Below, in pieces: positions 6,876 to 62,540 of a DNA stretch of 64,000 nt. The first letter of the stretch is position 1. Each line of letters starts with the position of its first letter. This DNA is from Okamejei kenojei. Its lineage: Eukaryota. The translations under genes and the position numbers were made by a program. The notes under the pieces are model-generated. The model was not told the origin of the DNA. It ran no database searches and saw only the letters and a program-made list of their open reading frames with translations. The DNA lies in assembly GCA_035221665.1 (NCBI GenBank), contig CM069142.1, positions 56,482,001 through 56,546,000 of the forward strand, read 5' to 3'.

Positions 6876-7150
6876 ATCAAAAGAGGAGAATCATTAAAGG
6901 ATATCTCCCTGGTGGCATTAGGGGGCTGATCTGAACGATTTGCTTGTTTCTGTCTAATGTGTTTAACCAAGAAGCACAAGGAAACACCTGCATTGTCCCT
7001 TCCAAGCTGCACAACTCTCTGAATGGAAAATTTAGTACCATTCCTCCATTGCTACTTGTTCCAAATCCTGGTATTCCTCACTCAACATGACCATGGACGT
7101 ATCTTCACTGGATGGGATATTACAGTTCAGGAACATGGCACCATCTTCAT

Positions 7151-7204
7151 GGGATGGAAGATTGCAACCTTCACGAGGTCCGCCCTGTTTTGACAAATGT
7201 AATC
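7151..7204 (+). ncRNA. HDV/CPEB3-like ribozyme fold, copy 1
   Basis: P1 GGGAUGG/CCGCCCU (one A-C mismatch), P2 GAUUGCA/UGUAAUC, P3 ACC/GGU, L3 UUCACGA, J4/2 CAAA (candidate catalytic C at 7194). Confidence 0.75.
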
Positions 7205-7288
7205 AACCCTGCATGCAAAATCAAATAAGATCAAATAGAACAAGTTGTCCTGCAACATTAGGCTGTGCACGCCATATGCAAGAAGAAG
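7151..7288 (+). mobile_element. ~140-bp ribozyme-headed short retroposon, copy 1
   Basis: Homologous to 13660-13799 with the same 5' end. (GAA)n tail. TSD ACCATCTTCAT (7140-7150) / ACCATCTTTAT (7289-7299). Confidence 0.9.
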
Positions 7289-8679
7289 ACCATCTTTATA
7301 ACGACAATCGAGTACAGGCTCTCAATGCTATCCTTGACCAAAGAAGAATAAATAAAACAAAAAGTTGGTTTGTTTATTTAGTTATTGCAGTAGATGAACA
7401 GCTCACTGATGACCATAATGCCCCAGGAAGAAAGAGGATGGCAGTCATTTTATTACCCTTGCGTTTTCCCTTCAAGTTATTGCATGTTTACTCACAGGTC
7501 TGAGATTACAAATGTCAGTCATTCCTGCACATATTGATCAAATCAGTTTCCTGAGATTTCATCCTTGAGTACTCTTCAGGTTTTCTCCCCATTTCTGCTC
7601 TGGATCCAAGAGTTTCTGAAGGTTGACAATGAAAATGTTTAGTTCTTCTTTTCTATACCTTTACAACTTTCATGTTCCTTCTTTGGGTACATCTGGCAAG
7701 TTCTGCCAGTTACAAAATTGATGCATGATTCATTCTTAAATGTGACTTACAATTCTGCAAAATATTCAGTCAACTTGCTGTATTTTCAAATTATTGTGGA
7801 ATCTTTATAATCTGCTTCCCTCTCCAAGAACACCCCATGAGTGAAAACAGAATACATTTTTTGACATTTCTGCCACTTTTTATTTGTCACTCTTGTGGAA
7901 AATGTAGTGCCAAGGAGCAAATGAATTGGGTCCTGGTTCAATAACAATATACACCAGGTCCACATTGACGTTTCTAGATGCTGGTTGCACTTTATGGAGT
8001 AATAAGGAAGTCAATTTCTGATAATTGCTCACTATATGCTGTGTTGGAACAATTTTTTTGACTCTTTGTCAACATGAATTTGCATTTATCTTTGTCACGG
8101 TGAACCATGTTATGGTTCAGACAAACTCAATGATATAAAGGAAATGACGTTGCAGGCTCAGCTCTTGGACAAATACCTCAGAAAGGTTGCAAACTGACTT
8201 ATTTAATCCCAAGGAAAGGGATATTAATTGTTGGGAAAATAGGTTGTATCAGTGCCTCATTATACTTCGCTGATTTAATTCAAGATTGAAATCAATACCA
8301 GATTTCTATCTCTCCCCTCCCTTCCCTCTCCCTACAATCAGCCTGAAGAAGGGCCTTGACCCAAAATATCACCTATCCATGTTCTGCCTGATCCGCTGAG
8401 TTACTCCAACACTTTGGTCTCAAATGTAACTGTTGGAGTTCAAACCTAGAGACACAACCCCATCTGCAGAAAGTACAAGCAGTTCCTTGGGGTTCAACTG
8501 TCTGTCAGTTGAGGGTTCTTTGCCTTCCCTTTCTCTTCTTGACTTTGAGGACAGTGTGCATTTAGCTAAAGTAGGCCATTGGCTCACGGAAGGTATGATG
8601 CCATTTGAGCTGACCAACATGTTATACTTCTCACAACTTGTGATGCCTGAGCTTGAGTCTTCTTGTGTCTTCAGCTTGA

Positions 8680-8812
8680 GTCTGAAGAAGGGTCTCGACC
8701 CGAAACATCACTTATTCCTTTCCTCCAGAGAAGTTGCCTGACCCGCTGAGTTACCACATCATTTTGTGTCTATCTTTGGTGTAAACCTGCATCTGCAGTT
8801 GCTTCCTACACA
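8680..8812 (+). mobile_element. Penelope terminal-repeat fragment (another at 8338-8420)
   Basis: GTCTGAAGAAGGGTCTCGACCCGAAACATC...CATCTGCAGTTGCTTCCTACACA. Confidence 0.85.
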
Positions 8813-11800
8813 TTGTGATATCTATATCTGTTTCAGTGAGATATATTTTCAGAATGTCTTTCTAGAATTATTCAAGAGTCAAGATGAGAGTGTTTTATTA
8901 TCATATGTACAGAAACAGAACAACGGAATTCTTATTTATGTTGATCAGCACTGGCTCTCAAAGGTTTAATGGTACTTTATTATCACTTGTCCTGGGATAC
9001 AGTTAAATAGTTATTTGGGCACAGTTCAGTACAGGTATTGCTATACATAAGCACATCTTAGATGCAGTACAAATGTATAGAAATAGTACACTGAGACAGC
9101 AGACAAGAGTCGTCAGGTTTGGGCACCATTTTCAAGTCCCACTTGTTGTAAGTGCAGAATTCTTAACCTGACCATGAAGACCTGTTGCTCTGGCAATGTT
9201 GCAGGGTTGGCCTGGCCAAGCATAGCCGTAGGTGACCTCCACCGCTCCTTGAAGCTGGAGGTTGCATCTGGTCTGCGTGCTTGGCCTCTTGGAGCGGCGC
9301 CCGATCCAGCCTCCAGTGGCCCGTGCTACCGCCGAGGTGAACTGCATTGCCTCCTGCAGCTGGTCTGCTTACCGGCCCTCTATTTCACATGTCCGCCACC
9401 ATCACTGACATTTTCTCACCTCTCCGGGCCTTGAGGACGAGCAGGGAAGTGATCGATGGCATGTCTCTTGGGGACGGTCTGTTACACGGCACCGTGGTTG
9501 CCTCTCTGACCATTGGTGACATGAGAGAAATGGACTCATGGGGAAATTAATTGTGGCATTCACACACAATATCTGACCCATGGATGTTATGTAAGACCAT
9601 TAACTCAAAGCTGGTAATATTGGCTTTGGTGAAATTACTGCCAGTAGTGCACCAATCCTCCCACTTGGTGCATTAGCACTTCTGGAATATTTCTCTCTTC
9701 TCCATTTATAGTTCTAAAACCAGTGGAATTGTTAAATATTTGGGAATGGTTTGTTTCCTTTGCATAATTGGATGACTACTGTGGAAACAAGGTTGGAGCT
9801 GAGTTATATTCCCTGATTTATGTATTTCCCAAATTTAGTTATGTATATTTCCATTCCCATTGGAGTTATTATTCCCATTCCCATTGGGTTTGTGTCTCTG
9901 GGTTTGAACTCCAACAGTTAAATCTGGGACACGTAGTGCTGGAGTAACTTTTAGTTATGATTTGTAAATAAATGAGAAATGTTCAGCTTAATTGCCAAAA
10001 TAACAATTTTAATTTGAACCATCTTACCTTAAAAATACTGATTATCATATCAACATTTTGTTCTGATCCCAAAAGTAATTCAGTGAAGCAAAATTACTGG
10101 AGATTTAAAGCATATGGTTTTGATTTACTTACTTTGCAAATCATCATCATGCCTGCAACAAACATTGCCTAGAAGTTTGTATTGATTAAAAGACAAATAA
10201 AAGGAATTTGGCATCAGTTCCCCGAGCCAAATTATGGTTGTTTTGTTTCTGGCTTTTGTTTGGTTGCTGAGCCTTTAACTACTTATTCTTTACAATATTG
10301 AAAAGGCATTATATATTTCTGATCCAGCTCTCCAGGGTTTTAATGTTTGGTTGGGAAAGACAGGTGCAGGCAATGGGAAAGTAGATAACTGCCTGCACCT
10401 CAATATCCCAAAGGAGATAATGAGAAGTTTACAAGCTGCTAATAGAGTGGAACCAATGCTGGAAGAATGCTCCTTATAGAACGCATGCAGTCAGGGGGCT
10501 GCAGGTCTTTGGGAGAACCTCCATTTGGCCCGTTATCGTGACAATGCTTAAAATGGAGATTGAGACAATAAAGCTGTCACCCTGCCAGAGACTGTCTGAT
10601 TATTACCATGTTACCATTCTGTTTGTCTCACAGATGTCCCCATATATTACTACTAATTATATTATCATAATGTTCTTATTAATGTCAGAGTTCCTATTGT
10701 GACGCCAAAGGCAATTGCAAAACATGGTGATTTGCTTCTGTTCATGTTGACCCCGGTAACTTAAAGCAGAGTGTACCTCTGTTACTTGGCTCATTCAAAA
10801 AATAAGTTGGTCCTATTCAATGCGGTAGTATTGTGGTTAGTTTTGGTTTGTTTGGAAGTCTGTATTCAGTTTTTGTAAGTTGAAAACAGTGTCAGCACAC
10901 ATGCTGGAAGATGAATGGGCCCCCACTGTGCGGCAATTCCTATGATTCAGAAGAGAAGGGGAAGGGTGAAAACATTGGTGGTGCAAATAAAACCTTTCAG
11001 CATAAATTACATTCAACATGAACCAATAGATGGGAATGAATGTACAAGTCTGCCATCTCATTAAATGGTTAAAAACCTCAATTAGTTAATATATTTCACC
11101 TGTTCAAATCTTCTATTGGAGAGGCGTGGAGTTGCTTGCAGATGTCACATTTTGCAAATTAAGCAGACTCTCAAAATCCATATGGAATATTATGCAATGT
11201 TAGATCATTAAGAAGATTCTCAAAAATGTATATGAAATAGTATGCAACATGTGACAACTGCAAGCAACCCCATATCTCTCCAGTAGAACCTTAGAACAGT
11301 TGAAAATAAAACAGTTAGCCCAATTATAATTCTTACTATTTTTGAATAATTCTGAACAACTTATTACCATCCCACAATAAAATAAAGCATGATTTTCTTT
11401 TAGGAATATGGTTATCAGGGCCTTTCTTGAGAATCATTTACAGAAGGCATGATAATTCTATATGTAACTCATTGATTTATTGCCATTGACTTAAAAAAAA
11501 GAATATATGTTTCTTTCTTTCTTTAACAATAACTATTTGCCTTTCACTCTAATGTTTGAACGTACCACTTGTTTTTGCCTTGTACATTTTCTGTCTTATA
11601 TGTTTACTTGTTGTCATGTTAATGGTAGCATGAATGGAAAACATTCAGATAGCTGCACTTTATACATAACTCTTTTCTGATATCCATATTCCTTAAATAG
11701 TGCTGAAAGATTGTGACTCATTCATTTCCAAAATGTTTACCAATTAAAATATGGATAATTTCAAATATCATTAACCAGAAGAAACCAATAACTCAAACAC

Positions 11801-13460: not shown

Positions 13461-13659
13461 AGAGAGAAAATGTTCTCAAATAGAGAAAGTACATATTGCA
13501 ATGTTGTGATTGCAGAAGTGCAAAACCAGGATGAGAAGTTTACTAGTTGCATTCAACATTATTCAATAAGAGTTGCCTAAAATTAGGAGACGCTTGAAAA
13601 CATATGAGTATTGATTAGCTGATCCTCTTGTTGTATGGCATTACTCCAGCACAGGTCTT

Positions 13660-13713
13660 GGGGTGGAAGATTGCAACCTTCACGCGGTCTGCCCTGTTTC
13701 CACTAATGCAATC
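13660..13713 (+). ncRNA. HDV/CPEB3-like ribozyme fold, copy 2
   Basis: P1 GGGGUGG/CUGCCCU with G1.U wobble, P2 GAUUGCA/UGCAAUC, P3 ACC/GGU, L3 UUCACGC, J4/2 CUAA (candidate catalytic C at 13703). Confidence 0.8.
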
Positions 13714-13799
13714 AACTCGACGTGCACAAACGGAAGATCAAATAGAACAAGTTGTCCAACAACTTTAGGCCGTGCACGCCACACGAAAGAAGAAGAAGA
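13660..13799 (+). mobile_element. ~140-bp ribozyme-headed short retroposon, copy 2
   Basis: Homologous to 7151-7288. (GAA)n tail. TSD AGCACAGGTCTT (13648-13659) / AGCACGGGTCTT (13800-13811). Confidence 0.9.
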
Positions 13800-14093
13800 A
13801 GCACGGGTCTTGCAGAACAATATGAAAAATAACTTGGAACTTGATAGAAAACAAAAGCAGAACATGCTGGCAACACAAGCAGTCAGTTGGTATCTGCATT
13901 AAAAATAAATTAATGATTTGGGTTGAAGAGCCACCATCAGAACTAAAAAAGTGTGAAAACAAGTTATTTTTAAGTTGACAAGATGGTGGAAGAGGAATGG
14001 ATTAGACAAAGGGAAACCTCTGGTAGGGTGTGCCAAGGTTCCCATGGTGATACAATGTTTACAAAGCAGTCTGGTTAATAGTTAATACAAAGC

Positions 14094-28459: not shown

Positions 28460-28684
28460 GTGTGGGAAGGAATTGCAGAATTGGTTTAAACCGAATATAC
28501 CGTAGGCACAAAAAACTGGAGTGACTCAGCGGGACAGGCAGCATCTCTGGAGAGAAGGAATGGGTGACGTTTCGGGTCGAGACCCTTCTTCAGACAGATT
28601 CTCGACCCGAAACGTCGCCCATTCCTTCTCTCCAGAGATGCTGCCTGTCCCGCTGAGTTACTCCAGCTTTTTGTGTCTATCTTC
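28460..28684. mobile_element. Palindromic Penelope-terminus-derived element (further fragments at 28748-28873 and 29035-29155)
   Basis: Long inverted arms, with an intact hammerhead core on the minus strand at about 28566-28593. Confidence 0.88.
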
Positions 28685-38493: not shown

Positions 38494-39125
38494 AGGGCCT
38501 GCCCACTTGGCCGTCATTCGCGCGCCATTTACGCGACCTGCTAGCACGTGGGTAGCGCATGGGTAACGCAGGATGGGCGCATGGAGTGGTGTGGAGGAGT
38601 GGGGAGTGGCGTATTTTCGTGCACCACCAGCCTGTCGCGTAACTGACGGCCAAAGTGGGACAGGCCCAAGACCCTGGCGCGGCGCAACGTCTCACCTCCA
38701 AGAGCAGCAGAAGCAGGCAAACGATCGCCGAGCTCGGCCTGGGGCTCACGGCCGTTGCGGATCCGGATCCGACCCCACTCCTACTCCCAGAGCAGGGACA
38801 AGACGATTGGAGATAGACACAAAATGCTGCAGTAACTCAGCGGGACCAGCAGCATCTCTGGAGAGAAGCAATGGGTGACATTTCGGGTCGAGACCCTTCT
38901 TCAGACTGAAGAAGAGTCTCGACCCGAAACATCATCCATTCCTTCTCTCCAGAGAGGCTGCTGGTCCCGCTGAGTTACTCCAGCATTTTGTGTCTATCTT
39001 CAAATGACGTCACGCGCTGCAGAGGCTGTGCGGACGCATGATGACGCGCGCGACCGTCGCGCGACCGTTGCGTGTCAGTCACTACCGGCCTGACGCGTAA
39101 ATGACGGTCAAGTGGGACAGGCCCT
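38494..39125. mobile_element. PIF/Harbinger-type non-autonomous DNA transposon (MITE)
   Basis: TIRs AGGGCCTGCCCACTTGGCCGTCATT / AATGACGGTCAAGTGGGACAGGCCCT, flanked by TAA (38491-38493) and TAA (39126-39128). CpG-rich. Confidence 0.88.
38806..39004. mobile_element. Near-perfect ~200-bp Penelope-derived palindrome nested in the MITE
   Basis: Centre CTTCAG-A-CTGAAG at 38905, with arms of about 100 bp and few mismatches. Confidence 0.92.
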
Positions 39126-61717: not shown

Positions 61718-62500
61718 TTACTTGCTGTCAGAGGATAATCGAGACATCCCGGCCGTGGTCATGCTGGCGACATGGTGAGGCGGGGGCACCTGACACATGG
61801 TACACGGGCAGGGCATGCCTCCCCAGTGCTGAAAACCGCTGCCCAGCGGGCCGGAGGCCGCCGATGCCGATTTGAGAAGACCATGAGGAGGTCTGATACT
61901 GTTCACGGTTGGGATGCTGCCCCCGGACAGAGAGGCTGAGGTGACTGTCGGGGCCATGATGGGATGGTGAACCTGGTGAGCGGCGTGAGATGCGAGGTGG
62001 CCCGGCAGAGGCGCCCCGCCGTGGCTCAGGGTCCCGCAAGCGGCCGATGGGTGGAAACTGCTGTGGTGGCCACCATAGATCTCACTCACCAGCCTCTTCA
62101 TCTCCTCCAGCGAGTTGGTGAGCATGAGGATGTAGTTTCTGGCCAGGAGCAAGGTGGCGATTTTGGACAGCTTTCTCACAGAAGGTCCGTGGGCGTAAGG
62201 CATGACTTCCCGTAGCCCGTCCATGGCGATGTTCAGATCGTGCATCCGTTTGCGTTCGCGACTGTTGATCTTCAGCCTGAGCTGCTGAAGCTCGGGCTCG
62301 CTCATCTGCTTCTTGTCTTTCAACCTGATGTCCTTGTCTCTCAGCTGCCCGCCCCGCTCGCCGCAGTACTGAGCTCCGCAGTCGCTCTGCGTGGATGACA
62401 CGGTGCTAGTGAAACCCGAGGTCGGTTCGTCCGACAGAAAAATGCTGTCCCCCTCCGGAGAAGACGGCTGGCTCGATATCAAGCTGGCATCGGAATCCAT
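61718..62500 (-). CDS. olig2: Oligodendrocyte transcription factor 2 (bHLH), 260 aa, single coding exon
   Basis: N-terminus [16 protein letters not shown] (triple-serine motif), b[57 protein letters not shown], and C-terminal [21 protein letters not shown]...SDSK are all diagnostic of Olig2 rather than Olig1/3. Confidence 0.98.
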
Positions 62501-62510
62501 TCGGCGGGCT

Positions 62511-62540
62511 CTAGGAAGGGTGGGGAGAGGAGTTTAAACT
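62511..62540 (-). other. olig2: Splice acceptor of a 5'-UTR intron of olig2
   Basis: Minus strand reads TTTAAACTCCTCTCCCCACCCTTCCTAG|AGCCCGCCGA-ATG: branch-like motif, polypyrimidine tract and AG 10 nt before the start codon. Olig2 genes have a non-coding first exon. Confidence 0.75.

Follow-up and report, generated by a model that had tools for sequence, protein, structure and literature searches.

The locus

The window (the whole 64-kb stretch of DNA analyzed here, on contig C12 of the 2.76-Gb genome that was searched) holds two copies of a short non-autonomous retroelement, the parts of which are set out in Table 1. The copy under study begins at a G (G1, position 7151), ends in an (AAG)3 tail, and is flanked by 11-bp target-site duplications that agree at 10 of 11 positions. 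The second copy likewise begins at G1 (13660), so a sequence-only reading of this DNA, which had described both the duplication and the common start, was right on these points. That reading also held the two copies to be of equal length; instead, the second has a 2-nt deletion, belongs to a different subfamily, and is 82.5% identical to the first. Compared with the family majority, the 7151-7288 copy differs at 12 of 138 positions. One pair of its predicted P1 helix is broken (A4-C33, the mismatch that had been pointed out), and it also carries U26A, C41U, and G45A. It is an old insertion with mild decay and is unlikely to be a source copy.

Elsewhere in the window, about 54 kb from the element, there is a single-exon bHLH gene (61721-62533, minus strand; Pfam HLH, E = 1.8e-14), which resembles OLIG2. 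Another abundant repeat is present window-wide in dozens of copies and in both orientations, some of them as adjacent inverted pairs (examples are 8679-8814, 28503-28682, and 38806-39003); its copies account for weak miRNA-like Rfam matches in the window.

Table 1. Coordinates of the element, its parts, and its surroundings in the window
Feature	Position	Strand	Remarks
Decayed old dispersed repeat hosting the insertion	6968..7150	+	continues weakly to ~7330
Left target-site duplication	7140..7150	+	11 bp, ACCATCTTCAT
Whole non-autonomous element	7151..7288	+	138 nt
HDV-like ribozyme fold without P4 (predicted)	7151..7204	+	predicted cut 5' of 7151
P1	7151-7157/7180-7186	+
P2	7160-7166/7198-7204	+
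P3	7167-7169/7177-7179	+
L3	7170-7176	+
P1.1	C7172-G7187	+
6-nt loop	7188-7193	+
J4/2	7194-7197	+	putative catalytic C7194
Segment derived from the autonomous LINE's 5' end	7151..7227	+	family positions 1-77, ~80 in the LINE-like subfamily
Linker	7228..7244	+	8-nt duplication of preceding LINE sequence plus a few bases creating a 7-bp hairpin arm
Segment from the LINE 3' end	7245..7288	+	last codons, stop, short 3' UTR, tail
Stop codon TAG	7259-7261	+
(AAG)3 tail	7280-7288	+
Right target-site duplication	7289..7299	+	ACCATCTTTAT, one mismatch
Second copy, other subfamily	13660..13799	+
Duplications of the second copy	13648-13659 and 13800-13811	+	12 bp, 11/12 identical

The insertion had been placed within an older, putatively CR1-like repeat, and the left flank does belong to an old dispersed repeat: it matches a profile of other repeat copies built without the flank at E = 4e-11, with seeds that were chosen by similarity to the flank. 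A fast genome search with the left flank matched only itself, and a search with locus L129 matched a neighboring younger repeat and returned no informative long copies. Extending the old repeat past the insertion scores 48.4 versus 44.4 in the control, a gain of only 4 bits. A 5-nt gap in the flank alignment is the site of 5 extra bases in four related organisms. In contigs of these four organisms, clusters of unrelated loose ends are seen at 7149-7151 and at 7286-7289, and single contigs run from each flank 20 to 29 nt into the element, below the 31-letter bar for bridging. This suggests that the same insertion is common to the four organisms. The sequence-only reading had looked to related species for empty orthologous sites; no empty-site joint was listed for the four organisms, whose contigs can show presence, not absence. 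Among the sequencing runs, none of RNA was listed as carrying the sequence, which counts neither for nor against transcription.

A large family with a sharp 5' boundary

A 22-nt head motif has 9,563 exact matches in the genome and a 23-nt tail motif has 3,954, with reversed controls at 0 for both. The exact head motif is present at 32 of 90 tail-motif loci, and a rough capture-recapture estimate from the two motifs places the family at roughly 27,000 copies, which is probably an underestimate because young copies carry both motifs. The high abundance anticipated from the sequence is thus borne out.

To plot 5' ends, as had been proposed, we used 90 loci picked by the 3' motif alone (the first 90 of 100 tail matches listed, all on contig C1 and in position order); the first genome search was left out of this distribution because full-length matches ranked first there. 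Sixty-one loci start at G1 and 16 at positions 2 to 4, placing 77 of 90 within 4 nt of G1, and the remainder comprise 12 that are further truncated or interrupted and a single LINE 3' end. This sharp boundary agrees with the earlier claim of a defined full-length unit rather than random 5' truncation; most copies do not extend 5' into coding sequence (1/90). Target duplications, mostly 11 to 12 bp long, flank 51 of the 61 copies that start at G1; among mismatched flank pairs, which served as the control, the count is 4 of 305. The mean divergence of the copies is 3.7% at non-variable sites.

The base preceding G1 is T in 40 of the 61 copies (background, 29%), and at 8 of 51 junctions this T lies outside the duplication and is not templated by the target. 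Could it reflect a preference of the endonuclease, the addition of a non-templated base, or an RNA that begins at -1? T is also enriched at -14 (27/61).

The autonomous partner LINE

The sequence-only reading predicted a LINE ending in the same 3' sequence, and such a LINE exists in the same genome. It is about 3.05 kb long, with a single ORF encoding an apurinic endonuclease-like (APE) domain, a reverse transcriptase (RT), and a CCHC motif, and without RNase H. We searched for it with a 3'-anchored pattern that excluded the middle of the short element (406 matches, 30 read), and 22 of the 30 loci read are LINE 3' ends with variable 5' truncation. The ORF ends in the CCHC motif, and its stop codon falls inside the tail shared with the short element. 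Walking upstream from the LINE 3' ends yielded 131 candidates at the RT region and 41 at the APE region. One copy (L152) is full length, spanning 3,043 nt from G1 between 8-bp duplications; another (L151) is full length minus 9 nt of the head. In 12 loci chosen for showing 5' UTR sequence, the LINE starts at positions 1, 1, 2, 3, 8, 9, 10, 10, 13, 65, 67, and 94. A head-anchored exclusion pattern did not find the LINE among the 30 loci read of 482, which were instead short copies with indels, interruptions, or rearrangements.

The ORF is broken in all genomic LINE copies read. Pfam detects the RT (E = 9e-29), the APE domain (E = 1e-8), and, weakly, a zinc finger; no RNase H was found at E ≤ 0.1 in three fragments of genomic LINE copies or in the closest protein (P0001), which is intact, 1,019 aa long, and 75% identical to the LINE. 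The other relatives among the proteins listed are mostly about 50% identical, APE-RT proteins of about 1,000 aa on contigs of about 3.2 kb. Besides the unnamed P0001, the named nearest relatives are mostly from arthropods (about 40 to 54%), which is compatible with a patchy distribution or horizontal transfer.

The short element and the LINE agree at both ends: positions 1 to 77 are identical at 71 of 77 sites (L010 versus L167), and positions 100 to 138 are identical at 37 of 39 (L010 versus L102). The 8-nt duplication in the linker is clear in the LINE-like subfamily (5 of 77 copies). The sequence-only reading missed that the head is the LINE's own 5' end. Because it is, the unit belongs to a known kind, LINE derivatives with an internal deletion. 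An RT tree of 35 rows (none dropped, two long rows unsure, no named Vingi reference) puts the LINE in a clade with 98/99 support that comprises 27 of the 35 rows and includes the metagenome element L289; the head of L289 is a near match to that of Vingi-2_Gav, given in the accessible part of the supplement of PMC5786205. The architecture of the LINE and this indirect tree link support a Vingi-like assignment without proving the name.

The short element and its parent also meet at individual loci. One short element interrupts the 5' end of a copy of its parent LINE (L157:1342-1477), and another lies directly upstream of a truncated LINE (L131). At L081, C3:111206943, C4:24758271, C4:37358030, and C4:85434342, the first bases of the head recur behind it in reverse complement, and inverted heads adjoin LINE copies L143, L146, L153, L162, and L173; these arrangements are consistent with twin priming.

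The head as a candidate ribozyme

As the sequence-only reading proposed, nucleotides 1 to 54 fit the nested double pseudoknot of an HDV-like ribozyme. The predicted fold comprises P1 (1-7/30-36, with a G1·U36 wobble at the 5' boundary of the element), P2 (10-16/48-54), P3 (17-19/27-29), a 7-nt L3, a single P1.1 pair (C22-G37), a loop of 6 nt instead of P4, and J4/2 from C44. The details given for the 7151-7288 copy also hold: P2 stays paired through G14·U50, P3 is intact (ACC/GGU), and J4/2 reads CAAA with C44 at its head.

An Rfam scan of the 64-kb window returned no ribozyme, and RF00622 gave no match for the window element; the sole match of a cleaner copy, correctly placed, was to RF02682 (14.4 bits, E = 2.1), so that the gathering score (RF02682, RF00622) was not reached (best 14.4 bits versus 44). 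Single-strand folding gives z = +1.5, which is uninformative because pseudoknots are not modeled.

Comparison with relatives says more. From 75 metagenome loci of the LINE protein family, we scanned the 24 in which the match reached the N-terminal part. A strict structure descriptor matched upstream of the ORF in 7 of 24 (two of them, L288 and L289, represent one element) and in none of the 24 reversed or the 24 ORF-internal controls; a relaxed descriptor added 2 of 14 (control, 0/14), and heads in three more relatives are visible by eye. Neither descriptor nor eye found a head in 12 of the 24, several of which look 5' truncated, fall outside the clade, or show an expanded fold. In one relative missed by both descriptors (L247:424-560), a long insertion seems to interrupt the fold of the head. 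In an alignment of 14 heads, 93% of cells are paired and double changes occur in 13 of 18 pairs; none of 500 shuffles attains the observed value, and slid controls give 39 to 45%. Because 10 of these heads were chosen for fitting the fold, the covariation count is partly circular and speaks for consistency, not proof.

Frequent variants within the family spare the core of the fold. C44 is kept in 71 of 77 near-full copies and in all 14 aligned heads, and the only common variants between positions 5 and 54 of the near-full copies are at 8, 32, 41, 42, and 45, which are a linker base, a U·G/U-A pair, loop positions, and a variable J4/2 base. The LINE has U5-A32, and most short copies have U5·G32. 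The core is perfect in 17 of the 61 G1 copies and has one broken pair in 18, including the 7151-7288 copy. Each of the ten aligned relatives carries a longer insert where P4 would lie; the short-element family does not. Most likely, a minimal HDV-like ribozyme defines the 5' end of the element.

The 3' half

In an intact copy, the 3' half is predicted to form a 10-bp stem (60-69/114-123; probability 0.87 to 1.0; -23.3 kcal/mol) enclosing a 7-bp hairpin at 92-108; 3 of the 10 long-range pairs are broken in the 7151-7288 copy and 2 in the second copy. The sequence-only reading described a shared stem-loop just before the tail and proposed it as the RT recognition signal. The stem-loop is present, but it has only 3 bp and a predicted -2.1 kcal/mol, which rules it out as a stable structure. 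The proposed role in recognition is not supported: the hairpin is marginal, and intact copies are predicted to pair the same bases in the 10-bp stem. Two LINE 3' ends (L097 and L109) have two different predicted folds. Judging from what the sequences share, the recognition signal should lie within the ~40 nt common to element and LINE. By eye, a similar short motif precedes the tandem tail of several distant relatives, and a sequence signal is therefore as plausible as a hairpin.

A GTGCAC-containing segment (L167:1381-1390) is present in the LINE 5' UTR and near the LINE 3' end. The two occurrences are largely complementary, so the ends of the parent RNA could pair; the short element is predicted to improve this pairing to a 10-bp stem.

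A proposed mechanism and its alternatives

The element consists of the first ~80 nt of the LINE, a linker, and the last ~40 nt, which makes it a bipartite non-autonomous LINE and not a separate SINE. We propose the following mechanism. Internal deletion of the ~3.05-kb LINE left a short element that keeps the two cis-acting ends, as the alignments show. Copies would probably be transcribed either by read-through from host promoters or from a promoter within the head. The 54-nt HDV-like ribozyme would then cut 5' of G1 to release a unit-length RNA, as the fold, the boundary, and the tested L1Tc/NARTc case lead us to expect. The LINE protein would bind the shared last ~40 nt and nick the target; the shared ends lead us to infer mobilization in trans. 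Target-primed reverse transcription from the AAG tail would follow, leaving the 11- to 12-bp duplications observed. Owing to the shortness of the RNA (138 nt), most copies extend fully to G1, whereas the 3-kb parent is mostly 5' truncated. We consider an internally deleted Vingi-like LINE derivative with a ribozyme-set 5' end the best overall explanation, and a probable one.

The alternative that survives best keeps the same origin and mobilization but attributes the G1 boundary to an internal RNA polymerase II start in the head, with the P4-less fold being slow, vestigial, or otherwise used (in protein binding or in translation of the parent LINE). According to the available part of PMC3383444, the first 77 nt of L1Tc/NARTc are also an internal promoter starting at +1. 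The unexplained T excess at -1 (40/61), from which the RNA could begin one base before G1, and the missing P4 point the same way. Against this, distant relatives have the fold and its catalytic C where they would be expected. A capped RNA is expected to leave an extra G before the start, as in L1; such a G directly precedes G1 at only 2 of 51 junctions, where it is hard to see against a G-run. On balance, we regard a promoter-set boundary as unlikely.

A classical SINE, with an independent small-RNA head and a borrowed LINE tail, would fit the size and copy number, and the accessible text of PMC5786205 reports Vingi 5' pieces inside tRNA-headed SINEs. The match of positions 1 to 77 to the LINE's own 5' end refutes this origin, which we hold to be very improbable; no tRNA-, 5S-, or 7SL-derived head was found, there being no tRNA in the window and no A or B (Pol III) box in the element. 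Random 5' truncation products of the LINE, or a chance repeat, are likewise refuted and more improbable still: genuine truncated ends of the LINE do carry this tail, but here 5' and 3' ends are joined across ~2.9 kb of skipped sequence and 77 of 90 loci start within 4 nt of G1.

Implications

If the ribozyme of the internally deleted LINE derivative is active, structure-function work would gain a P4-less HDV-like ribozyme that occurs naturally in a vertebrate and has thousands of natural variants. The element would also offer a natural minimal map of the cis-acting ends of a Vingi-type LINE (about 80 plus 40 nt), and the Vingi clade has been used for RNA-templated gene insertion (PMC13708176, as far as its available text goes). 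The class itself, ribozyme-headed and internally deleted LINE derivatives, is already known.

A testable lead concerns the CPEB3 ribozyme. The head of one metagenome relative (L289:2188-2271; the same element in L288:3117) scores 55.6 bits against RF00622 (cut-off, 35; E = 1.9e-12). It heads a LINE of the partner's clade, and named Vingi heads in the accessible part of the PMC5786205 supplement are near-identical to it. Sequence similarity thus suggests that the mammalian CPEB3 ribozyme may be an exapted Vingi 5' end. A literature search, including a term search in PMC8233481, found no statement deriving the CPEB3 ribozyme from Vingi; Kojima 2011, Webb 2009, and Ruminski 2011 may hold one.

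We speculate further that the head is an active 54-nt P4-less ribozyme present in tens of thousands of vertebrate copies, thousands of them with an intact core; that sense intronic copies could cut host pre-mRNAs; that ribozyme heads are general in Vingi; and that one of them was the CPEB3 source. This combined proposal is tentative, and we would not yet favor it over its denial.

Relation to known systems

We are highly confident that the element is a bipartite, internally deleted, non-autonomous Vingi-like element of a known kind (NARTc/RIME/Vingi-N). Both LINE ends are shared, the ORF is deleted, the head does not come from a small RNA, and the copies have individual target duplications. 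Bipartite non-autonomous LINEs have been reported from RTE, Ingi, Vingi, and R2 (Kojima 2018, PMC5786205); the portion of that paper available notes that they usually keep the parent's 5' end, for which a ribozyme may be the reason, and describes the Vingi-1_EE family and bipartite LINEs as likewise internally deleted with both ends kept. The partner LINE resembles Vingi as characterized in the available text of PMC13708176, namely a compact element with one ORF, of the APE type and without RNase H, in having a compact single ORF with APE and then RT and no RNase H. Our literature search, with Repbase and Dfam outside its scope, found no report of the short-element family; Kojima 2011, Webb 2009, and Ruminski 2011 may list one.

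The closest parallels are trypanosome NARTc (from L1Tc) and RIME (from ingi), which, in the excerpts available, have the same bipartite plan and an HDV-like ribozyme head. NARTc has its first 77 and last 30 nt in common with L1Tc (PMC3383444), compared with the first ~77 to 80 and last ~40 nt here, and its head, like that of L1Tc, both cuts itself before +1 and has promoter activity (PMC3383444, PMC4035085). According to these excerpts, NARTc is 263 nt long with a poly(A) tail, its parent has RNase H, and its ribozyme has P4 and tested activity; the skate element is 138 nt long with an (AAG)n tail, its parent has no RNase H, and its ribozyme fold is predicted and has no P4.

The CPEB3 ribozyme (Rfam RF00622) resembles the head in topology, in its one-pair P1.1, and in L3, where UUCACGU agrees with the Rfam consensus line; unlike the element, it has P4, a long J1/2, and a single intronic locus. 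More broadly, a review (PMC6765202, in its accessible part) records HDV-like ribozymes in metazoan LINEs and SINEs and hundreds of dispersed copies in which the downstream sequence is conserved and the upstream sequence differs. Minimal P4-less HDV-like ribozymes (drz-Mtgn-1, theta) share with the head the missing P4, a short J1/2, and a catalytic C first in J4/2 (PMC10879173). In the part of that survey available, about 99% are in gut phages, often beside tRNAs, and the only eukaryotes are human, mouse, and protists. Unlike theta ribozymes, the head described here belongs to a vertebrate retroelement and not to a phage, and the window contains no tRNA. The predicted P4-less HDV-like head in a vertebrate is thus an unusual detail of an otherwise known kind of element.
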